A stretch of DNA of 64,000 bases from Octopus vulgaris (GCA_951406725.2 OX597822.1:58528001-58592000); one strand, 5' to 3'; shown: positions 2,015 through 64,000, counted from the stretch's first letter. Translations and numbers: made by a program. The notes: a model not told the origin generated them from the letters alone.

Positions 2015-2070
<56 letters not shown>

Positions 2071-2209
2071 TACTTGGAGAAGAGAAATAACGCGTGCGTT
2101 CGGTCATATAATAATATAATAAATAAGTAAAATATATGCACATATACATACATATATGTACATACTTACATCTACTTACATCTACTTACATCTACATGTA
2201 TATATATAT

Positions 2210-2260
<51 letters not shown>

Positions 2261-2417
2261 TACAGGACACCACAAATAAACGTAGAACACAACGAGAGAC
2301 GAAAACATAAAATCAAACGAGGAAACAGACTTTTTTAAACAACGAAAAAACAAGGAAACGGACTTTTTTTAAAACAACGAAAAAACAGAGTACAAGACAA
2401 ACAATACAAGGAAAATT

Positions 2418-2479
2418 CCCCTTCATCAGCTGCCCCTGGTTCGACTCAATGCGTGTTTCGAAGGTAAGGGCAGAACACG
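2418..2479 (-). ncRNA. Hammerhead ribozyme, non-circularly permuted (copy A)
   Basis: Sense CGUGU-U-CUGCCCU-UAC-CUUC-GAAACACG-(15 nt)-GGGGCAG-CUGAUGA-A-GGGG. Stem III CGUGU/ACACG, stem I CUGCCCU/GGGGCAG, weak stem II GGGG/CUUC. Predicted cut after GUU (2474/2473). Confidence 0.75.
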
Positions 2480-2736
2480 GCCAGGCCGAAGCAATCCTTC
2501 TTGCAAAAGGAATTAAATAAAATTATTTTGCAGAGGGTAAAACAAGTGACAAGAACAGGACGTAAAAGCAATACAAATGAAGTAAAAACAGTAGAAAAAA
2601 CAGTTCAAATAAAGAAATAGGACAGGGAACCAACAATAAAGGCTTTTTTTGCCTAGACGGTGGAAAATTTAGTTAGAACGCATGTGAAAAATCGGCTTGC
2701 GAAGGACAGAGAAATCGATCTATACTTGTTGAAGCA

Positions 2737-3099: not shown

Positions 3100-3101
<2 letters not shown>

Positions 3102-3159
3102 ATTAACAGACGCTCAGGGAAGGGGAGAAGGTTGGTTTAACGTTTCGAGCAACGCTCTT

Positions 3160-3160
<1 letters not shown>
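3100..3160 (-). mobile_element. Truncated pLTR-like fragment with the 3' part of a minimal type I HHR
   Basis: Minus strand AAGAGC-GTT-GCTC-GAAACGTT-AAACC; the CUG start of the core is lost at the (CA)n junction; related to 21091-21128. Confidence 0.5.
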
Positions 3161-4491: not shown

Positions 4492-4492
<1 letters not shown>

Positions 4493-4568
<76 letters not shown>

Positions 4569-4573
4569 CATAC

Positions 4574-4605
<32 letters not shown>

Positions 4606-4619
4606 ATATCAATCCATAC

Positions 4620-4703
<84 letters not shown>

Positions 4704-4735
4704 ATATCTATCTATCTATCTATCTATATATATAT
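4493..4735 (+). repeat. (TATC)n microsatellite
   Basis: Direct reading. Confidence 0.95.
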
Positions 4736-5532
4736 AAACTTACTTGGAGGAAACGAAACGACGCGAGGGCGCTCAGTCATACAATAGTGTAATAAATAAA
4801 ATATATGCATACATACATACATATATGTACGTACCTACATCTACATGTATATATACATGCATATATAAATATATATACGTGAGTACAGGACACCACAAAT
4901 AGACGTAGAACTCAACGAGAAACGAAAACGTAAAAACAAACATGGAAACGGACCTTTTTTTTAACAACGAAAAAACAGATACAAGACAAACAACACAAGG
5001 AAAATTCCCCTTCATCAGCTGTCCCTAGTACGACTCCATGCGTGTTTCGAAGGTGAGGACAGAACACGACTCGTCGAACTAGCCCTTAAATAAAATTCCT
5101 TTGCAGAGGGGTAAAAACAAGGAATGAAAAAAATGTGACAAAACAGGACGTAAAAACGATACAAATAAAATTACAAAATAAAATACAAAATAAAAATACA
5201 ATTACAAAAAATACAGTACAAGAAATAAAAACAAACAAGAAAACAAACAATGAGGGCCTTTTCTGGCCTAGACGAGGAAAGATTTTCAAGAGCGCAGGAA
5301 GAAAGCGTGTTCACTGTTAGGAGGCCGCAAGCGAAAGGAAGTGGTCGCCTGGCTGTGAGAGAGATGAGGAGGAGTGAGAGAGAGAGAAAGAGAGAGGAAA
5401 GGAAACCAGAAAGGGTGAAAAAGAGAGACAGGCAAAGAGGAAGACAAGGAAGGAAGGGAAGGTCAAGCAAAGAGTTATAGAGTTTCGCGTCATAATTATA
5501 TATAAAAACTTACTTGGAGGAAACGAAACGAC
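4736..5532 (-). mobile_element. ~770-bp ORF-less HHR-bearing unit with a 27-bp terminal direct repeat (retrozyme/Penelope pLTR-like)
   Basis: AAACTTACTTGGAGGAAACGAAACGAC at 4736-4762 and 5506-5532; contains HHR copy C; homologous to 2066-2743 and 62720-63115. Confidence 0.75.
5007..5068 (-). ncRNA. Hammerhead ribozyme, non-circularly permuted (copy C)
   Basis: Sense CGUGU-U-CUGUCCU-CAC-CUUC-GAAACACG-(15 nt)-GGGACAG-CUGAUGA-A-GGGG; compensatory C-G to U-A change in stem I versus copy A. Confidence 0.75.
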
Positions 5533-5627
5533 AGCTAACTCGAATTTTTATTAAAACGGTATACCTTACATTTCAAATCATCAAAAGCAACAATAGTTAA
5601 ATAAATGTTGACTAGTGCACTAATATA

Positions 5628-6842
5628 TATATGCATAACAGAAGTAAATAGATACCTCATAAAACATTTTTTTGTTTTAACCTGAAAAGGTTTATATTTT
5701 TTAATAATTGACATTTCTTATGTTTCAGGTTCTATATGTGACTGCTTAATCATGCCACAAACAAAAGAAGCCTTGGAACTGTCTGAATTTCAAAGAGGCC
5801 GCATTGTGGGTCAGTCTGAAGGTGGAGTTAGCGTAAAATCGCAGAAAACCTTGGGACCTCGCTTTCTACAGTTTACAGAGAGATTGTACAATTCACCAGA
5901 GAGGGGAAGGAGTTCACATCACCTCGTCCAGGTCGACCAGAGCTCTCTGACAGGACTCGTCGCTTCGTTAGGAGCATAATCCTCATTGCAAAGCCTCTGA
6001 CATAGCAGTTGATGTCAGTCCTAGAGCAGCTGTCAGATATCTCCATAAACCTGGCTACTATAGCAGAGCAGCAAGAAGGAAGCCACTTCTTCGACCAGCC
6101 AATATCAAGCGGAGAAAAGGTTGGGCCAGTGAGATAGTGGAGAAGCGACTAGCAATTTGGGACACTGTCATATTCTCTGATGTGTCCAGATTTGCTGTAT
6201 TTTCTGACGATGGTCGAGGGCGGGTCTGGAGACCTTGTGATCAATAATTTGACATGAAAACAATGCAGCCAACAATGAAACACAGCAGCTATTCTGTGAT
6301 GGTCTGGGGAGCAATTTGGAGCAATGGTCGATCAGAGCTGGTGGAGTGTGAAGGAAACATAAACTGAGATAAGTGTCCATGCTGCAGAAAGGACTTCTTC
6401 CAATCTTCTCCAGTGGTGAAATGATTAAAGAAGACTCTAGTTATGAAAGATGTGGTTCCTTGTTACATGGTTAAAAAGACCCAAGATTGGTTGAAAAAGA
6501 ACGGCATTAAAAAGCTTACAGGGGCAAGCCAGTCACTAAATATGAACTCTATTGAACACCTCTGTGGCATAATGGACAGAACACTTCATAAAAAGAAAAA
6601 GAAAGCATCCTCAAAACCAGATCTTTTGAGATTACGCCATGAAATTTGGCAAGAAATTCCTCAAGAGAATATTCGTCATCTGATCAGTAGCATGCCTAAT
6701 GGAGTCCTTGCATTGAAAAATGCAAAGAGCATGTCTACTAAATATTAGATATTCACCTTATAGATAATTTGAATATATAATTTCAGATTTAAATAAATTT
6801 TAACGATTATAAGGGTGTCTATTTACTTCTGTCATGTCTGTG
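5628..6842 (+). mobile_element. Tc1-family DNA transposon, near full length, decayed
   Basis: Imperfect TIRs (..CATAACAGAAGTAAATAGATACC / GGGTGTCTATTTACTTCTGTCATG..) flanked by TA at 5626-5627 and 6843-6844. Confidence 0.9.
5752..6748 (+). pseudogene. Tc1 (DD34E-type) transposase pseudogene
   Basis: MPQTKEALELSEFQRGRIVG (paired-like HTH), AARRKPLL, VIFSDVSRF, MKDVVPCY, SQSLNMNSIEHL and terminal STKY; several stops and frameshifts. Confidence 0.9.
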
Positions 6843-6946
6843 TATATGTGTGCGTGCTTGTGCGTGCGTGAGTGCTTGTACGTGTGTGTTTGCATGCGTG
6901 CGTGCGTAGGTACTTACGTGCTTACCTACCTACCTATCTATATATC

Positions 6947-10876: not shown

Positions 10877-11295
10877 TTAGGTCGTCCGGAAAGTTCTGAA
10901 TGTCCGGAAAGTTCTGAATATGCAAGAAGGGATATACTTCATGAACGGTACTTTTAGAAACTCCCAACTCCTCTGCAAGTTATCTTATCATGACATTTCA
11001 GTTTTCTTCGATTTTTGCCTTCAAAACATCTTCATCCAATTTTGAAGGTCTTCCACTGCAACTGCCATCTTCCAAGCTAAACGCTCCAGCTTTAAATTTT
11101 GTAAACCACCTTCGAACTGTCGAATCCCCTACAGCATTATCACCATAAACCTCACAAATGTTTTTGCAAGTCTTTGCAGCCTTTTCTCCTTTTTTATAAA
11201 GAAAAATATTACAACGCAAATATGAAATTTTTGGTTATCCATTTCAAATGTCAATAAGGAGTAACCAGAATGAATGATAAATCTATTTTTAGACC
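10877..11295 (-). mobile_element. Internally deleted mariner element (N-terminal transposase remnant)
   Basis: ATG at 11242: MDNQKFH..YKKGEKAAKTCKNICEVYGDNAVGDSTVRRWFTKFKAG..SGRPS..ELGVSKSTVHE, then directly a TIR-like end TA|TTAGGTCGTCCGGAAAG; the other TIR was not found. Confidence 0.75.
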
Positions 11296-11759
11296 TTAGT
11301 GGGCCGGCGGGGTTGGAATTACACAAAATGCCATTGGGATACCCTTTTATTTTTGCGCATTTCCGCACTATCCATAAAGTAATATTTGTTGAATCTTGTA
11401 TAAATGTGTGAGGGCATGATACAAAACAAGAAACTTAGCCCTTCTTTTTATAGTTTTATAAATTGTACTAAATAAAACTAAATATAAAATAAATATAAAA
11501 TAAATATTAAATATAAAATAAAACGAAATTATTTAGTATATCGATTCATACTAGTACAAATACAAGTACAAAGTACACAGCAACACAACTACGCAGAGGC
11601 AGCCATGGTTCAAACAAGAACAAGAATAGCAAGCGTTATTAAAAGAGAAAAGAAGCATGGTCATTCTTTATCCTTATCGCCCATCACTTGTTATGCCCTC
11701 ATAAATTAGTTTGATGGTTGAGCTCTGATTGGCCGTATGCAAATGAGTTCATAACTGGG

Positions 11760-20380: not shown

Positions 20381-20993
20381 ATGTAAATTCGTGCAATAGA
20401 AGCTGTAAGAGATTAAAATAACCATCTGTGTAATACACCTAATCCAAATACGTCCAAAAGATCAAATCACCAGCGTTATTTGTTCGGAGATAATATCTCT
20501 CAGGGACTTACTTTATGTAAAAACGGATACTTTATGTTTAAAAACCCATATGTATTAGTATCAGAAGAAAATCGTCGAAGAGATGTGGTGAGAAGCCCAT
20601 TTCTGCTTTGTCAGTAGTCTGTACAAACTGGCAGCCGTCGGCAGAGACAAAATCCGTCGCCACTGATATAGGATAATATTGATAGTAATACCGGTGAGTT
20701 TTTAGTCATTATTAAGTAAAAGTGAATACGTGCTACTGACAAAATCTAATAAGTCCGGAATTAGTATCTTGCGTTCTCATCACCACTGCTAAACGATTTA
20801 TGACTGATACTTATATATTTGTGTTTTGAACACAGTACGTCCATAAGAGATATCATCTCCGGACGAATGCCGCAGTTAATTTGGCGTTCCCGATATGTGT
20901 GCATTTAAGTATGATACATGCGCGCGCGCACACACATATTTATATATACACACATATGTATACATGCGTATATGCGTGTATATACATATATAT

Positions 20994-21202
20994 AACGGGA
21001 AGGTTTACGAAAATAAACAAAAGACGAAGGCAGGTGGAGTACAAACAAACAATGTATTAGTATGGCGCTCAGGAATAGAAATAAAACAAGTCTTTTACGT
21101 TTCGAGCCTACGCTCTTCGACAGAAAGATACACAGAAAAAAACAAGGAGAGAAACAAGGAGAGAAAAAAATTGCGTGTAGGGGCTAACGATCCAACATGG
21201 CG
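20994..21202 (-). mobile_element. ~210-bp pLTR-like non-coding element (second copy 63325-63536)
   Basis: The two copies are near-identical with the same ends and sit next to (TA)n; each contains a minimal HHR. Confidence 0.8.
21091..21128 (-). ncRNA. Minimal type I HHR, core variant CUGUCGA
   Basis: UCUUU-CUGUCGA-A-GAGC-GUAG-GCUC-GAA-ACGU-A-AAAGA: 5-bp stem I, 4-bp stem II, palindromic ACGU stem III. Confidence 0.65.
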
Positions 21203-21249
<47 letters not shown>

Positions 21250-32217: not shown

Positions 32218-33455
32218 TCAGGCTGAGTAAAAAGTAATCAACGTTTTGAAACATGAAATTCATCACAATATATTTCAACAATTGTGGAAATTTCAATCAT
32301 CAAAGTAAGTATCACTACAATCAACACAATTTTGCCAACGTGTTAAAAGTTTGTTTCTTCCGGTAACATAAAAATTTATAGTTCTGGAGCTGATGAACTA
32401 TTTAAACTCACTTTCAGCACCCGTTTGATTTTTGAACCCCTTCTCTCGCAGGAAACCATCAAGGTGTTTGGAAAAGTGGTAGTCGGTAGGAGAAAGGTCT
32501 GGGAAATAAGCTGGGTAATAAGCCACATCCTGGAGAATCATTAGTGAAACGTGTGATCAAGCATTTTGATGAAGAATGATTGACCCTTTTCTGTTGACTA
32601 GTCTGGGAGGGAGGAGTAGCAGATTTTCGTTCATTTTGGCAATTTCATGGCAATATCTTTCTGCAGTAATGGTTTTTCCGGGTTTTAAGAAGTCATAGTA
32701 GATGAGTTCAGCAGTACACCACCAAAACAGTCACCATAACCTTCTTTTTGAAGAGCTCGGGTTTAGGGAAGGTTTTCGGTGCTTTATTTTAGTCCAACTA
32801 CTGCGAAGAACGTCTTTTATTATTATACAGAATCCACTTTTCATCGCAAGTTATAATACGGTCGAGAAATGAATCGGTCTGGTTACGGAGAAGAAGCGAT
32901 GAGCATATTTCATATCTGCACATTTTCTGATTTTCATTCAAATCGTGTGGTATCCATTTGTCGAGCTTTTTTGATATTCCGACCGCATTGCAAATGGTTG
33001 CATGCAGTATTCTGGGTAACTTGAAGCTCTTTTGCCAGTTTTCGGGTGGTTTTACGTGGATGTTTCTCAATGACGGTCTTTAAGTGGCTGTCATAAATGA
33101 CAGATGGACGTCCACTACACGAACGGACATTAAGGCTCAGGTCTCCACTGCGAAATCGTTCAAACCATTTTCGAGCTGACCACTCACCGGCCATTTCCTC
33201 ACAAAACGTTTCGTTGATATCGCGATCAGTTTTTTGAAGTTGAATAGCAAAATTGCTCGAATATCGCGTTTTGATAGTTCCATTTCAGATGATTGTAACA
33301 ACGGTGAAAAAAATATCAATGTTAATTTATTGATGCATTTAAGCATATCTTTGTCTGTATTTGCTGACAATTACAAAAAAAAAAAAATGTTTAAAAAAAT
33401 TTTTAACTCTGCAAAAATCCGGTTCAAAACGTTGCTTACATTTTACTCAACCTGA
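32218..33455 (-). mobile_element. Mariner element, near full length, decayed
   Basis: TIRs TCAGGCTGAGTAAAAAGTAATCAACGTTTTGAA / TTCAAAACGTTGCTTACATTTTACTCAACCTGA with TA on both sides. Confidence 0.92.
32293..33283 (-). pseudogene. Mariner (DD34D-type) transposase pseudogene
   Basis: MELSKRDIR, KWFERFRSGD, WIPHDL, IITCDEKWILYNN, YFPDLSPTDYHF and WQNCVD..YFDD*; frameshifts and stops. Confidence 0.9.
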
Positions 33456-44078: not shown

Positions 44079-44129
<51 letters not shown>

Positions 44130-44600
44130 GGCAGCTAGCTGGCAGAATCGTTTACACGTCGGACGAAATGCTTAGCGTTATTTCGTCTGTCTTCATGTTC
44201 TGAGGTCAAATTCCGTTGAGGTCGACCTTACCTTTCGTCCTTTCGGACTCGATGAAAAAACTACCAGTCAAGTACTGCGGTCTTTGTAATCGGTTATCCC
44301 TCTCTCTCCAAACTTCAGACTTTGTGCCTTCAATAGAAAGGATCATCATCATCATCTTCATCATCATCATCATTATTATTATTATTGCGACGAGCTGGCA
44401 GAATCATTAGCACGCCGAGCGAAATGCAAGCGATATTTGGTCTCCCGTTACGTTCAGAGTTCAAATTCCGCCGAGGTCGACTTTGCCTTTCATCATTTCG
44501 GGGTCAATAAAATTGGTAGCAGTTACACACTGGAATTGATGTAATCGACTTAATCCATTCCCCCAAATTTGAGGCCTTGTGCTTCCAGTAGAAAGGATTG

Positions 44601-44641
<41 letters not shown>

Positions 44642-45400
44642 GCGAGCTGGCAGAATCGTTAAGCACGCCGGGCGAAATGCTTAGCGGTATTTCGTCTGTT
44701 GTTACGTTTTGAGTTCAAATTCCGCCGAGGTCGACTTAGCCTTTCATCCTTTCGGGGTCGATAAATTAAGTACCAGTTACGCACTGGGGTCGATGTAATC
44801 GACTTAATACCTATGTCTGTCTTTGTTTGTCCCCTCTATGTTTAGCCTCTTGTGGGTAATAAAGAAATAGGTATTTCGTCTGCCGCTACGTTCTGAGTTC
44901 AAATTCTCCGAGGTCGACTTTGCCTTTCATCCTTTCGGGGTCGATAAATTAAGTACCAGTTGCGCACTGGGGTCGATGTAATTGACTTAATACCTATGCC
45001 TGTCCTTGTTTGTCCTCTCTATGTTTAGCCTCTTGTGGGTAATAAAGAAATAGGTATTTCGTCTGCCGCTACGTTCTGAGTTCAAATTCTCCGAGGTCGA
45101 CTTTGCCTTTCATCCTTTCGGATCGATTAAATAAGTACCAGTTACGCACTGCGGTCGATATAAGCGACTTAATCCGTTTGTCTGTCCTTGTTTGTCCTCT
45201 CTGTGTTTAGCCCCTTGTGGGTACTAAAGAAATAGGTACTTCGTCTGTCGCTACGTTCTGAGTTGAAATTCTGCCGATGTCGACTTTGTCTTTTATCTTT
45301 TTGGGTCGATAAATTAAGTATCAGTAAAACACTAGGTCGATGTAATTGAGAAGCTCCGTCCTCCAAGATTTCCGACCTTGTGCATATAGCAGAAAGGATT
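44130..45400 (+). mobile_element. SINE S2 cluster including a head-to-tail array of ~183-bp units (44686-45400)
   Basis: Units restart at GGTATTTCGTC at 44686, 44870, 45053 and (GGTACTTCGTC) 45235. Confidence 0.9.
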
Positions 45401-49835: not shown

Positions 49836-50696
49836 TCAGGCTGAGTAAAAAGTAAGCAACTATGAGGAATTTGTACAGGGTTTTTGTACAGTATTGAAAT
49901 TTATTCAAACATTTTTTTGTAATTGCCTGATAATACAGATACAGACTTGCCCAAATTCATCAATAAAATTACATTGATATTTTATTCACCGTTGTGACAA
50001 TCATCTGAAATGAAACCGTCAAAGCGCAATATTCGTGCAATTTTGCTTTTCAACTTCAAAAAAGGATGGAAAGCATTTGAAACTGATCGTGATATCAATG
50101 AAACGTTTGGTGAGGGAATGACCAGGGAGTGGTCAGCTCGAAAAATGGTTTAAACGATTTCGCTGTGGAGACCTGAGCCTTGAAGATCGTAAGCATAGTA
50201 GACGTACATGTCATCGATGATGGTCAATTAAAGACCGTCATTGAGAAAGATCCACGTAAAACCACTCGAGAACTGGCAAAAGAACTTCAAGTTACCCAGA
50301 AAACTGCCTGCAACCATTTGCATGCGGTTGGAAAATCAAAACAGCTCGACAAATGTGTTTGAATGAAACAGCTCGACAAACGGTTTGAATGAAAATCATA
50401 AAAATGCGCCGATATGGAATTTGCTCATCGCTTCTTCTCCATAACCAGACCGATCCATTTCTCGACCGTGTTATAATTTGCAATGAAAAGTGGATTCTGT
50501 ACAATAATAAAAAACGTCATTCGCAATGGTTGGACCAAAAGGAAGCACCGGAAACCTTCCCTAAACCTGACCTCTTTGGCAAAAATGTGTTGGTTGCAAT
50601 GGTACTTACTTTGATGAATGAAGTTTCCGCAATTGTTGAAATATATTGTGATGAATTGTATGTTTCAAAACGATGCTTACTTTTTACTCAGCCTGA
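49836..50696 (+). mobile_element. Mariner element of the same family as 32218-33455, internally deleted
   Basis: TIRs TCAGGCTGAGTAAAAAGTAAGCA / TGCTTACTTTTTACTCAGCCTGA with TA flanks; ATG at 50010; DRVIICNEKWILYNN; jumps from KPDLF to the last codons. Confidence 0.9.
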
Positions 50697-54231: not shown

Positions 54232-54233
<2 letters not shown>

Positions 54234-55003
54234 TCAAAGCTTGTTTACCAGAAATTACCAGGCTAACGTTCTCCGAAACGGTACTGACCCTAAATGCAGA
54301 TTCTGTGACACATTTGACGAAACGATAGACCATCTCGTTTCGGGATGTCCTGTGCTGACACCAAACGAATTCAAAAATCGCCACGATAGGGTAGGACAGT
54401 ATATACATTGGAAGATATGTAAATACTACAAATTCGACACTCCTGCTAACTGGTATGAACACCATCCTCAGCCAGTTGTTGAAGGTAAGGATGTCACCAT
54501 CCTCTGGGATTTTCCAGTCAACACTGACAGAACGATCAAGGCTAATCGACCAGACATAATTGTTAAAGACAGGGAAGAAAATACCTGCAGACTAATAGAG
54601 GTAAGCGTCCCCACTGATAAAAATGTATCTGTAAACGAATTTGACAAACTTAGTAAATATAAGGACCTGGAAATCGAAATACAAAAGATGTGGAATCTTA
54701 AAACAAAAACTGTTCCTGTTATTGTAGGTGCCCTAGGTATGATAAAAAAGGGATGTCAGAAACACCTAGACAATATCCCTGGAGAACCATGTCTCAAGGA
54801 AATCCAAAAGATTGTGCTAACAAGTACTGCCCACATCCTTAGAAAACCCCTATCAATGTACATGTTTGTGTTTGGAGATATTTCTCTACTTCCCCTCCCC
54901 AAGCTTTCAACTATATTTCAACAACTCTTAACCTTCACTTGCCCTAGGGCGCTGGGTGTGCCCCGGCAAGTGATTGCATCAAACATGCAGATTAAAAGTA
55001 AAT
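54232..55003 (+). mobile_element. 5'-truncated R4/Dong-clade LINE, subfamily 2 (CCHC knuckle plus restriction-like endonuclease)
   Basis: DQSLFTRNY..KCRFC..ETIDHLVSGC..RHD..ILWD..NRPDII..IEVSVP..KLSKYKDL..PVIVGALG; uninterrupted frame; (AAT)n on both sides. Confidence 0.9.
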
Positions 55004-59689: not shown

Positions 59690-61573
59690 AAGTAGTGCCA
59701 CAGGCTGGGCTGTTGGGATGTGTGCACACTTCTAGATGATAATTTCAACAAGAGGCCAAAAAGGCGTACTGCACTTACTGCATGTAAGCTTTAAAATAAG
59801 CTTTAAAATATTCCCTTGATGTTGCACTCTCTGAAACTAGTCTCTGGTGAGGGGCAAATAAATGAACCTACTTATGGACATACTATCTTCTGTACGGGCC
59901 TACCTGAGGGTTACCGTAGAGAATCTAGTGTTGGGTTTGTTCTCAAGAATTCATTAGTATTCTCCATTGCAGAACTTCCAAGTGGTATATCTGAACGAAC
60001 TATGCTATGCCGTATAAAACTGACAAAAGGTAGGTTTCTTAACATTGTCAGTATTTATGCATCAACAATGTCTCATTCTGATGAAACTGTAGGACAGGTT
60101 TATGACGATGTAGTACAATTACTGAAGAAAGTACCAATTTCTGACAAGCTGGTCATATTGGGAAATTTCAATGCAAGAGTTGGAAGTGATTACATTTCAT
60201 AGCCTGTTTTAGGCCGACATGGGATTGGAAAATGTAATAAAAATGGAGTAGCTCTTTTGACGTTTTGTATTGAGAATAATACGGTTGTTACCAACACTCT
60301 GTTTAAGCAGAAAAGTAATATATAACTACCTGGATGCACTTAAGATCTAAGGACTGGCATCTCATAGATTATATTTTGATCAGAAAGCGTTATATGAAGG
60401 ATGTTTCTAGTGTTCGGGCCATGAGAGGAGCAGAGAGCTGGACTGACCATCGTCCAGTCCGTGCAAAAATGAATTTTTCGACAATGCCTAAAAGTGGACA
60501 GTTTGGTCCTAAGGTACACAAAAAGTTAAATTCTGCAAACTTTAAATGACCAAGCAACTTGGAAAGATTCCACGATGCTATAGAAAGTATCAATCTTGAG
60601 CCAAATAACATATGGGAAGATTTCAAAGCAAAAGTATTTCAGGCTGCAGGTTCTTCAGTGGAATTTAAATCGGATAAGGCCATGATCTACTTTGAGAAAA
60701 ACAGGAAATACACTTCTTTCTCAGTGCTTCAGCTTCAACTCAAACGAAGCTCACAGAAAGCTGAAAGAGAAAGTGCAGACTGCTCTAAGGAAAATTAAAC
60801 AGGAATGGGGGAATGGCATAGCAAAGGGGGCGCAAGAAGAAGCTGATAAAAATAATGCCAAGGGTTTGTACTCTTATGTAAAAGAGGTATATTACCTAAA
60901 ATATTCAATATCTCCAGTGAGAACAACAAATGGTCATTTGTTTTTGACTGACACCGCTTCTATTCATAAGCGCTGGGTAGAACATTTTTCTGTACTTTTG
61001 AATAAGGTTCAAAAGAAGTTCAAGGACGGCATAAGGACTGCCATGAAGTCAACTGGAATGGATCCCAAGGCCATAGAAACCTTTACTTCGGATCGAGCTG
61101 CATGGCGAACAAAAGAGTGGAGATGAGTGAAAGCGTTTGAAGATGCCAGGTTAACACGTGCAAGACTCAAGAGAGATTTTAAAGAAGAATATTGCGATCG
61201 AGAAGGTGAACTCAGTGATCTTTTTGTGTGCACAGTTTGTGACAGACCATGCCTTTCTTTTGTTGGGCTCAAATCTCATTTGCAGACCCATGAAAAACGA
61301 ACCTCCACCAACTATTTTGCCTATATATCTGTGCACACATTTCAATGCCATATATGCCATAAGGTCTGCAAATCTGACAGAAACCTCAGAAAACGTTATA
61401 AGATCCATAAAGATCAGAACTTAACTGCAACTCTTCATGGTCCAAATCGGATATGCAATCTATGTGGGTGTCATTTAAATAGATTGTCTAGTTTAAAAAG
61501 CCATATCAGACGCCACGATGGATCTAAGGTGTAGGTACAAGAGTTGGTCAGACTATGCATGAGGAGTAGACAA
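59690..61573 (+). mobile_element. RTE-clade LINE, decayed: APE endonuclease, RT deleted, three C-terminal C2H2 fingers
   Basis: RLGCWDVCTLLD..RPKRRTAL, SGEGQI..VGF, IVSIYAST, LVILGNFNARVG, WHLIDYIL, WTDH; RWVEHFSVLLNK joined to KKFKD..SDRAAWR; then CTVC..SHLQTH, CHIC..KIH and CNLC..SHIRRH. Confidence 0.88.
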
Positions 61574-62719: not shown

Positions 62720-63115
62720 AGCAGCCCTTACTGTTTGTTTTCACTGTCCTGTTTTTGTAACCAACTTTGACCGTCCGCCAGTCTCAAATCTTATTTTGCT
62801 ATGCGGGACATATTTTGTCGCAATTGCTCGAAATGTGGAATAGATAAAACAGCCGACAACTGATGAAGGGTCATTCTTTATGTTACTTGTTTTATTTTCC
62901 ATTGTTTTCTTTCGTTGTTCGCCAAAAAGTTCGTATTCCATGTTTTCATATTTCGTATTTCATGTTGTTTACGTTTTATGACGTCTTGAACCCATATGTG
63001 CATATATATATTATTTATATTATTATAGGATTGAACGCCACGCATCCATTTCCAAGTAAGTTTATCATAATAATTCCGATGCGACTCTATCATGCATTGT
63101 TCTCTTTCCCTCGTT
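62720..63115 (+). mobile_element. Diverged member of the ~770-bp HHR-unit family
   Basis: Same motif order as the sense strand of 4736-5532: HHR, T-rich segment, GTC(C/T)TG(T/A)AC, CCAAGTAAGTTT and ..CG(A)ACTCTAT. Confidence 0.7.
62809..62871 (+). ncRNA. Hammerhead ribozyme, non-circularly permuted (copy D, diverged)
   Basis: CAUAU-U-UUGUCG-CAAUU-GCUC-GAAAUGUG-(16 nt)-CGACAA-CUGAUGA-A-GGGU. Stem III CAUAU/AUGUG, stem I UUGUCG/CGACAA, stem II GGGU/GCUC. Confidence 0.72.
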
Positions 63116-63324
63116 AGTCACATTGAACAAAAAAAGAAGTAAAAAGTTTCTTATTCTTTACTTTACTTGAAGTAATAGTTTGTCCTATACTTTTGCAGGT
63201 GTAATAACTTGTCCTGTACTTTTCCAAGTTTATAATCTTAAGAATATCACTTTTCATGCTCGCATTTTTCCATGTAGCATATATATATATATATATATAT
63301 ATGTAAGTATGTATATATATATAT

Positions 63325-63536
63325 AACGGGAAGGTTTACGAAAATAAACAAAAGACGAAGGCAGGTGGAGTACAAACAAACAAATGTTTTAGTATGGCGT
63401 TCAGGAATAGAAATAGAACAAGTCTTTTACGTTTCGAGCCTACGCTCTTCGACAGAAAGATACGTAGAAAAAAAAAACAAGGAGAAAAACAAAGAGAGAA
63501 AGAAATGCATGTAGGAGCTAACGATCTATCATGGCG
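63325..63536 (-). mobile_element. ~210-bp pLTR-like element with a minimal HHR (63423-63460, core CUGUCGA)
   Basis: Near-identical to 20994-21202. Confidence 0.8.
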
Positions 63537-64000
63537 TCGGGCACACACACAAATGCCGAAATATTTCTGGCTTTGGGTAATAGAAAATACAGAACGATCA
63601 ATTAATTACGATACTATTCAACATATTCCCATCTCAGATTCACTCATTTATTGCAGTTGTCCTTCAGTTTTTCTAAGCCCTGTGAAAGAACTCGGAAGGT
63701 TGGGCCGCTAACCAGGCCTTTCGTGACACCCTTAAAGCACTTCCTCGCATGTATGTATGTATGTATGTATGTATGTATGTATGTATGTATGTATGTATGT
63801 ATGTATGTATGCATGTATGTATGTGTATATATATATAAAGAGAGAGAGAAAGAGATCTATACTGAGAGCGAGTTATGTCCTTAAACGAACTTCAGCAATG
63901 GCTCACCTTGGGGTTTCCATTGTCCTTTTTTCCCTACCTATTGTGTTTGGATGAAGGGGCAAAACCCACGATTCTTTCAGACCCTCTGAAACGGGGGAGG

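Follow-up and report, generated by a model that had tools for sequence, protein, structure and literature searches.

An insertion without an ORF and with a non-circularly permuted hammerhead ribozyme in Octopus vulgaris: a likely derivative of a Naiad-type Penelope element

The insertion at 4736-5532 of the window (the whole stretch of 64,000 nt of Octopus vulgaris DNA analysed here), called copy C, is best explained as an ORF-less insertion of a Penelope-type element (PLE), most likely of the Naiad clade, made from a linear read-through RNA. On balance this reading as a whole is favoured. For its separate parts, derivation from a PLE seems hardly in doubt, derivation from a Naiad is quite likely, and a linear template is probable. 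Copy C carries a hammerhead ribozyme (HHR) in non-circularly permuted order, and such ribozymes are very likely the normal ones of Naiads across animal phyla. The features of copy C are as follows.

4736..5532, minus strand: copy C, a 27-bp upstream pseudo-LTR (pLTR) stub plus a 770-nt unit without an ORF
5506..5532, minus strand: 5' copy of the 27-mer (minimal pLTR), 19 nt of putative exon 1 plus the splice donor at 5513
5353..5513, minus strand: putative 161-nt spliceosomal intron over the unit boundary, donor 5513, CAG acceptor 5353
5306..5352, minus strand: exon-2 stub of 47 nt without ATG, the inferred place of the missing ORF
4736..5305, minus strand: 3' region/pLTR in common with copy A, from sequence comparison
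5069..5125, minus strand: periphery of the ribozyme, some 16 nt less than in copy A
5007..5068, minus strand: non-circularly permuted HHR, order S-G-C, from descriptor and covariation
5068-5064/5045-5041 and 5062-5057/5024-5019, minus strand: stems III and I of this HHR
5063, 5048-5045 and 5018-5012, minus strand: H17 (GUU), GAAA and CUGAUGA of this HHR; predicted cut 5063/5062
4736..4762, minus strand: 3' copy of the 27-mer, where the element ends, 8 nt into the putative intron; putative fixed RT start
4492..4735, no strand: target microsatellite, (CTAT)n and then short (TA)n at the insertion end

The 27-bp repeat is exact (4736-4762/5506-5532, period 770), and mismatches flank both of its copies. 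A second copy of the 27-mer arising by chance in the window has an expectation of about 1e-11, which rules chance out. A target-site duplication (TSD) is ruled out as well, as homologues of the 27-mer form the end of copy A and lie in the interior of copy D, described below. Copy D continues past the terminus into sequence like that of copy C. By this comparison, the sequence beyond the 27-mer is element sequence too, so that the 27-mer is no TSD and the boundary of the unit falls 8 nt into the putative intron. The 5' flank of copy C holds neither (TA)n nor a TSD. The lack of any other TSD is the one point in favour of a reading in which the repeat is a TSD or an accident and the ribozyme match is fortuitous. 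Together with the ribozyme evidence given below, the homologies and the chance expectation leave this reading a negligible probability.

The sense strand of copy C is the minus strand, with 341 T among 770 bases and a GC content of 37.7%. The longest ATG frame is of 80 aa in the linear unit, 91 aa if the unit is read as a circle and 86 aa as a circle after splicing. Pfam gave no family for the two longest sense stop-to-stop frames in the 5' half. A frame of 112 aa had no homologues among 68 candidates, and no other copies were found by way of spurious predicted proteins. Copy C is thus non-coding, as animal non-LTR retrozymes are. The unit did not fold better than its shuffles (z -0.99; 3/20). 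The exon-2 stub showed no detectable similarity to copies A or D. As judged from the sequence, copy C is an assembly of both end modules of an element without the ORF: the 5' module (donor, intron and acceptor) lies 47 nt from the 3' module. This means that it is more than the tail of some longer coding element; if such units were always just that, the original prediction would by its own terms have failed. The same prediction had described a unit of period 770 that starts and ends with the same 27 bp, lacks a credible ORF, contains one permuted HHR, shares its end point with copy A and was inserted at a TA microsatellite. It had also taken the unit for a non-autonomous, PLE-dependent element, and had considered a locus-specific TSD unlikely. 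The present analysis agrees with all of these points, with the lack of autonomy referring to the unit as it now stands.

Further copies were sought within the 64-kb window by blastn and with a profile of the ribozyme region. Four copies (A, B, C and D) were found with E of 1e-18 or better, the next match being at 0.031. The other three are as follows.

2066..2736, minus strand: copy A, 5'-truncated, with the 3' end as in copy C, in (TA)30
2479-2418, minus strand: HHR of copy A; its upstream partner is at 2540-2534, the hairpin at 2533-2501 and the stem-II partner (5 bp) at 2500-2496
2737..~3040, plus strand: copy B, inverted, head-to-head partner of copy A; starts at the first base of stem III
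~62720..63278, plus strand: copy D, a diverged member 57 kb from copy C; S-G-C HHR at 62809-62871 with compensatory changes
63056-63198, plus strand: putative intron of copy D, running beyond the terminus at 63063; then 80 nt and (TA)n

From the ribozyme downwards, the core identities are 169/185 for C and A, 216/220 for A and B, and 125/170 for C and D. In the 3' region common to C and A, the identity is 81% in the upstream part and 91% from the ribozyme downwards. The last base is the same in copies A (at 2066) and C (at 4736), and both then run into (TA)n, which is present at the 3' side of all four copies and at both outer ends of the A and B pair. At the junction of this pair (2735-2743) there is a 6-bp palindrome, and the first base of copy B lies 6 nt upstream of the predicted cut. 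An inverted 5'-truncated copy with a junction palindrome is a feature of PLEs; palindromes at inverted junctions, along with TATA/Inr-like motifs in pLTRs, were described by Arkhipova et al. (PMC3846280). The cleavage site is crossed by three of the four copies. No second full unit and no array were found in the window by blastn, on which the absence of an array rests, since Tandem Repeats Finder is blind to periods above 500.

No RT or GIY-YIG sequence, the combination of telomerase-like RT and GIY-YIG being the mark of PLEs, was found in the 64-kb window. Because there is no such ORF, copy C can be filed only as a non-autonomous or deleted derivative of a PLE. The protein features by which Naiads are defined, namely an N-terminal GIY-YIG, CxC and DKA motifs and an IFD in the RT, belong to a coding region that is absent from the window. 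At its 5' end, copy A has 44 nt unlike copy C upstream of the common part, and these lie in a stretch of 27 open codons up to a TAG at 2655-2653. The spacing of F, K/R-Y and S-F in this open frame recalls, by eye, the C-termini of Naiad RTs. The 31-aa frame had no match among 1.84 billion representatives, no Pfam family and nothing above 0.77 in the Atlas. A phage collection gave no match either. As far as its sequence goes, the open frame may be the end of a coding relative. The 44 nt of copy A showed no significant similarity to the acceptor region of copy C (340-917 of 1000 shuffles).

These observations bear on an alternative reading in which copy C was inserted as a full-length autonomous element, with an ORF of about 3 kb, and the ORF was deleted afterwards in the genome, between 5352 and 5306. 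Copy C would then be dead and its period of 770 an accident; this agrees with PLE anatomy and involves no mobile short unit. The differing 44 nt of copy A, with their open codons and RT-like spacing, fit such a history, as does the lack of ATG in exon 2 of copy C. So do the description of cephalopod Naiads as old remnants (PMC8557442) and the frequency of internally deleted PLE copies (PMC3846280). Against it, the peptide of copy A has no database support, and full-length PLE insertions are described as rare in comparison with truncated ones (PMC8557442). In addition, the deletion would have taken the start codon and nearly the whole ORF while sparing both cis modules, a result that is also expected from selection on a non-autonomous family. 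A later deletion is considered somewhat less likely than not. Within the preferred reading itself, the ORF may have gone before insertion, in a mobile non-autonomous family, or equally well after it, leaving a dead remnant; the readings overlap, and their probabilities are not mutually exclusive.

The boundary of the unit, in the preferred reading of a PLE derivative copied from a linear RNA, is spanned by a putative intron. The donor at 5513 fits the donor consensus at 8 of 9 positions. The last 13 nt of the 27-mer, which hold the donor part, are invariant in all four ends, while D and C are 73.5% identical. The last 110 nt of the putative intron in copy C are 90% pyrimidine, and the first AG downstream of the donor is that of the CAG acceptor. 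The distance from donor to first AG (161 nt) is the longest among 43 identical hexamers in the window. The first ~50 nt of the intron are homologous to the sequence that follows the donor in copy D (0/500 shuffles). Copy D passes the terminus, runs for about 50 nt in the homologue of the start of copy C and meets a consensus-like acceptor at 63198. This means that the signals of a boundary-spanning intron, as known in PLEs, are present in both C and D, with splicing itself putative. The partial tandem or pLTR organisation of PLEs is also seen, as the 27-bp stub in copy C and as the read-through junction in copy D.

The 80 nt after the acceptor in copy D did not match copies A and C (184-831 of 1000 shuffles under three scoring schemes). 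Therefore, the short-unit architecture is not established as common to the family. The 3' end of copy D may reflect a different RT start or a truncation. The flank of copy C at 5533-5640 was considered as diverged element sequence and set aside, with a score reached by 152 of 500 shuffles and no repeat match by blastn. A stem across the read-through junction (4775-4763 with 5532-5476; 63040-63085) was considered and rejected, as it was equalled in 57 of 300 shuffles in copy C. There it has 9 bp, with a pair probability of about 0.74, and holds the donor and the terminus in its loop. In copy D it has 6 bp with one compensatory change by eye and is not the predicted fold (227/300).

The blocks of the HHR in copy C stand in the order cleavage site, GAAA and CUGAUGA (S-G-C), and any tandem of the unit would keep this order. 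With a strict descriptor for all six orders, the S-G-C order was found three times in the window (copies A, C and D) and in none of 100 shuffled windows; with a loose descriptor, it was found in 2 of 100. Copy B misses the strict descriptor by one mismatch in stem III. An alternative G-C-S pairing in copy B was set aside, as it consists mostly of wobbles. In the alignment of the four copies, 55 of 56 cells are paired, compared with 39-55% in slid controls, and 5 of 14 pairs show two-sided change. All five fall in stems I and III (5 of 11 pairs). This covariation comes from four related sequences, and most of the changes are from copy D. A chance ribozyme match is ruled out by the shuffled windows and the compensatory changes, which also count against the reading of TSD and accident given above. 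Rfam gave no match at the gathering score in the window. At E<=10 the matches (74 rows and 19 rows) were microsatellite noise, with no HHR family among the 74. This silence is as expected, because the order of the HHR is non-canonical.

The ribozymes of the window have the defining traits of type SGC, namely the S-G-C order, an intact core and an NUH site. Type-SGC HHRs were validated in vitro by Eckert et al. 2023 (PMC10085705). As far as that paper reports, the type comes from metatranscriptomes only, among RefSeq, metagenome and metatranscriptome sequences, and no non-circular HHR is known from the genome of a known organism except for one bacterial GCS candidate. The intact CUGAnGA and GAAA, the NUH site and the covarying stems I and III are also as described there for types SGC and CSG. 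Several details differ. The link between stem I and GAAA is typically of 3 nt in type SGC, whereas it is of 4 nt in copies A-C and 5 nt in copy D, and the interaction stem I-II is not evident in the window copies. Unlike that of type SGC, their stem II either is rich in wobbles and has one more nucleotide behind A9, or is formed with an upstream strand that sits behind two inserted helices. The pseudoknot hammerhead of PMC13725137/PMC11300833 has, as presented there, a topology different from S-G-C.

The direct stem II has 3-4 bp of G-C and wobble pairs, is preceded by an extra A and shows one-sided change only. As a duplex it has 0.0 kcal/mol in copies A-C, in which a 5-bp alternative pairing also invades the ribozyme core. 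Single-strand folds gave the active structure in none of the four copies, with a program that does not model pseudoknots. The cleavage triplets GUU and AUU are counted against efficient cleavage, like the weak stem II and the competitor of the core. The other peripheral helices are weakly supported: they were chosen post hoc and are individually weak, the best being at 46/1000 and 76/2000 and the others not significant. In copy A, there are two upstream partners (40/1000 shuffles; 332/1000 for C and 433/1000 for D) with a hairpin of -5.5 kcal/mol between them, and the upstream stem-II partner is stronger than the direct stem II. In copy C, the 3' arm of this hairpin is missing, as is the G with which the upstream stem-II partner begins. 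Copy C keeps the helix between linker and loop (76/2000 shuffles) and, for the strand that follows CUGAUGA, a weak partner upstream. The ribozyme of copy C may thus have been crippled by a peripheral deletion.

The link to Naiads comes from File S5 of PMC8557442, in which the HHRs were judged by eye. Among the 54 Naiad consensi, at least 16 have an HHR of non-circularly permuted order at their 3' end. Eight are of S-G-C order (Obim, Ovul, Esco, Amil, Aacu, Anas, 2_Movir and Plae), from cephalopods, cnidarians and Pomphorhynchus, an acanthocephalan. All eight nematode records (Ppac, Parc, 1-, 2- and 3_Nbra, Hcon, Hpol and Asuum, with 1_Nbra and Asuum assigned through file order) are of C-S-G order. 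The nematode motifs have three intact stems (I of 5-6 bp, II of 4-5 bp and III of 6-12 bp) plus an extra helix. The GUU site of Hpol and the extra nucleotide after A9 in Asuum are like those of the window ribozyme. The ends of Dcar, Omin and Adux, all marked incomplete, and of 1_Skow were read fully and have no motif. The count covers 20 of the 54 consensi, 16 with the motif and 4 without, the other 34 being represented by the motif matches listed. Some motif matches in the region of the ctenophore, spider, ostracod and hemichordate records could not be fitted to an HHR by eye, and motifs split over two lines are missed in this count.

In most S-G-C Naiads, the strand in front of GAAA does not pair with the one behind CUGAnGA; its partner is an upstream segment, which supplies the G opposite C11.1. 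The strand behind CUGAnGA pairs with a segment further upstream, and a hairpin lies between the two partners. The loop between GAAA and CUGA is paired with the linker that precedes the cleavage block. This layout, recognised post hoc and by eye, is clearest in Plae, 2_Movir, Acropora and Obim/Ovul and is degenerate in Esco. Copy A fits the arrangement of upstream partner, hairpin and partner. The Obim and Ovul Naiads have, by eye, the same stem I as copies A and B, 14 consecutive bases in common with them and similar block spacing. Outside the ribozyme, the 3' UTR of Obim/Ovul showed no similarity by eye, except perhaps in the last few bases.

According to PMC8557442, Naiads have partial tandems, inverted 5'-truncated copies, tails and a preference for (TA)n, the last in five of five cephalopod Naiads. 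Obim, Ovul and Plae thus resemble the window family in (TA)n insertion, a partial tandem with a short pLTR and an inverted 5'-truncated partner. They further resemble it in the lack of a canonical HHR, in an S-G-C ribozyme in the 3' region and, by eye, in the stem I of the Octopus Naiads. The differences are the lack of an ORF in copy C, its length of 0.8 kb compared with 3.4-4.4 kb in Naiads, and the longer sequence 3' of the ribozyme. The boundary intron, in addition, is only suggested for Naiads, whereas it is described for Penelope and Chlamys-3. It should be mentioned that the Naiad motifs stand in that paper as 'HHR_core', 'HHR_half_core' or nothing; eight half cores and several cores are flagged in Naiads said to have no canonical HHR.

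Membership in another PLE clade (Neptune, Penelope/Poseidon or Hydra), with a permuted HHR gained independently or by pLTR exchange, has to be weighed here. (TA)n targeting, introns and pLTRs are not specific to Naiads; such targeting is described for the Neptune and Hydra clades too (PMC8557442). The ribozyme also lies 200-275 nt from the 3' end in the window copies, compared with about 80 nt in Obim/Ovul. On the other side, the same paper states that canonical HHRs occur throughout Hydra and the other PLEs and that Naiads have none. The non-circular HHRs found in its supplement were all in the Naiad file, the listed Hydra and Chlamys motifs being canonical. Hydra-clade elements, the Octopus one included, carry HHRs of canonical order, which weakens a Hydra-clade origin of copy C. 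Another clade is considered quite unlikely. The (TA)n insertion, not in itself clade-specific, and the lack of a canonical HHR are in keeping with the preferred Naiad origin. Non-circular wiring appears to explain why HHRs seemed absent from a whole group of animal PLEs.

The preferred reading further holds that copy C was made from a linear RNA. Transcription would start from a promoter at the end of one pLTR, and the RNA, left unspliced, would extend through the next pLTR. A PLE RT/GIY-YIG protein, acting in trans, would bind the uncut RNA and nick (TA)n. The cDNA would begin internally, at a fixed position 8 nt into the intron, where A and C end, perhaps aided by the TA-rich sequence beyond the terminus of the read-through RNA's unit. 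Synthesis would cross the uncut ribozyme and stop 27 nt past one unit, possibly at the 5' end of the transcript. The ribozyme would be a slow or regulated non-circularly permuted HHR, as in the 3' ends of the Naiad consensi. The boundary of the 27-nt overlap lies after a conserved CGC, at a pyrimidine-purine step in A, C and D. This step is as expected of a start site, so that the overlap may equal the distance from the start site to the RT start.

In Penelope and Chlamys-3, according to Craig et al. 2021 (PMC8557442), transcription starts within the pLTR, and an intron of the 5' UTR crosses the boundary of pLTR and body. D. virilis Penelope and Chlamys-3_cRei resemble copy C in this start site and in the retained intron, both putative in copy C, and non-autonomous Chlamys/MRC1 elements resemble it as derivatives with a common 3' end. 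Arkhipova et al. (PMC3846280) left undecided whether the PLE template is antisense or unspliced sense RNA. A purified PLE showed AT-rich nicking and a fixed internal RT start on read-through RNA in vitro, and accepted uncleaved RNA as a template (PMC11167929). Anolis Poseidon (PAc) is similar in its internal RT start and AT-rich target, but its RT starts 111-118 nt inside the ORF, whereas the window elements end 8 nt inside the intron. Unlike copy C, these Penelope, Chlamys and PAc systems have HHRs of canonical order or none. Partial tandems, inverted 5' copies, boundary introns and internal RT starts are all known in ordinary PLEs with linear read-through RNA, and such an RNA accounts for the overlap. 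The overlap would be a minimal pLTR, for which no circle is needed.

The main competing template is a circular RNA. Copy C would then belong to a retrozyme-like non-coding family, in which tandem loci elsewhere give a multimeric RNA that is cut to 770-nt monomers and ligated into circles. A PLE RT without RNase H would round the circle once and displace 27 nt of its own product. A more-than-unit copy with a 100% identical overlap is what this route would leave, and read-through of the cleavage site in three of four copies would be natural on a religated circle. Copy D resembles a permuted partial unit. A circular template has long been proposed for PLEs (PMC4209133), and retrozymes are described as PLE pLTR derivatives that occur also as solo monomers (bioRxiv 10.64898/2026.07.22.740005). 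Furthermore, head-to-tail arrays are reported in non-autonomous Chlamys elements (PMC8557442). The loci of the window, however, have one HHR each and none in the overlap, so that copy C could not release a monomer alone. The missing array or second full unit would have to exist beyond these 64 kb, together with an active ribozyme. The weak folding and the peripheral deletion in copy C also speak against circles. Copy A departs from C upstream of 5305 and lacks the acceptor region, so that it is not established as the same short unit.

Animal retrozymes, as described by Cervera and de la Pena 2020 (PMC7229834) and Li et al. 2026, resemble copy C in being non-coding, HHR-bearing and low in GC, in deriving from pLTRs and in needing a PLE RT (PMC7229834; bioRxiv 10.64898/2026.07.22.740005). 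As defined in PMC7229834, they are tandem repeats of 150-450 bp with a type I HHR, of C-G-S order, in each unit and demonstrated circles, whereas copy C is a solo unit of 770 nt with an intron and a non-circularly permuted HHR. The circular route is considered unlikely. The same holds for the combined proposal that the normal HHR of Naiads is non-circular and that copy C belongs to a mobile, intron-containing non-coding family that parasitises the Naiad RT via 770-nt circular RNAs. Of the circular or multimeric template in the original prediction, the multimeric part stands, in the form of a more-than-unit copy; the circle is dispensable, as a linear read-through RNA suffices. Its affiliation of the unit with retrozymes is so far not supported, in view of the single ribozyme, the lack of an array in the window, the size and an HHR that is not of type I. 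On the present sequence evidence, copy C is to be regarded as acting as a non-autonomous PLE outside the retrozyme family as defined.

Non-circular HHR permutations were until now found in metatranscriptomes only, with hosts unnamed (PMC10085705), and are here placed in an animal retroelement. The S-G-C order, so far reported from virus-like RNAs only, is placed here in a Penelope-type element. No paper in the open-access literature was found that places non-circularly permuted HHRs in Naiads, PLEs or animal genomes. If the assignment is true, the statement that Naiads lack hammerheads is overturned, and the argument that HHRs are dispensable for the success of PLEs falls with it. Surveys with descriptors of type I-III HHRs would undercount animal ribozymes. 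With its upstream partners, the layout described above would add a multi-helix architecture to those known for hammerheads. Copies A, C and D would place a fixed RT start 8 nt inside an intron that spans the boundary. That the overlap equals the distance from the start site to the RT start is a prediction that separates linear read-through from a circular template.

Other repeats surround these copies. A second repeat family, at 20942-21203 and 63279-63537 (minus sense; the pair 88% identical) with a fragment at ~3100-3160, lies by (TA)n and has a canonical-order hammerhead-like core variant with a 4-bp stem II and GAAA. It adjoins both B and D, and the terminal (TA)n of D is common to it; from its sequence, it is probably the pLTR of another PLE. 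Beyond copy C, unique sequence at 5533-5624 is followed at ~5625-6845 by a decayed Tc1-like transposon with diverged terminal inverted repeats and a match to Pfam HTH_Tnp_Tc3_2. Mariner-like transposase fragments are present at 11001-11434, 32801-33284 and 50389-50600, and a decayed LINE at 59800-61500 with endonuclease and RT-flanking pieces, both from frames judged by eye. Right after a long (AAT)n, at 54232-54861, lies the C-terminal part (210 aa, seemingly intact) of the ORF of a non-LTR retrotransposon; it is zf-RVT-like by Pfam, and 549 homologues reach E<=1e-30. At 44116-45346, Tandem Repeats Finder gave tandem arrays, of periods 255 and 183, of a SINE-like repeat, and many dispersed copies of this repeat and of a second SINE-like repeat occur across the window.
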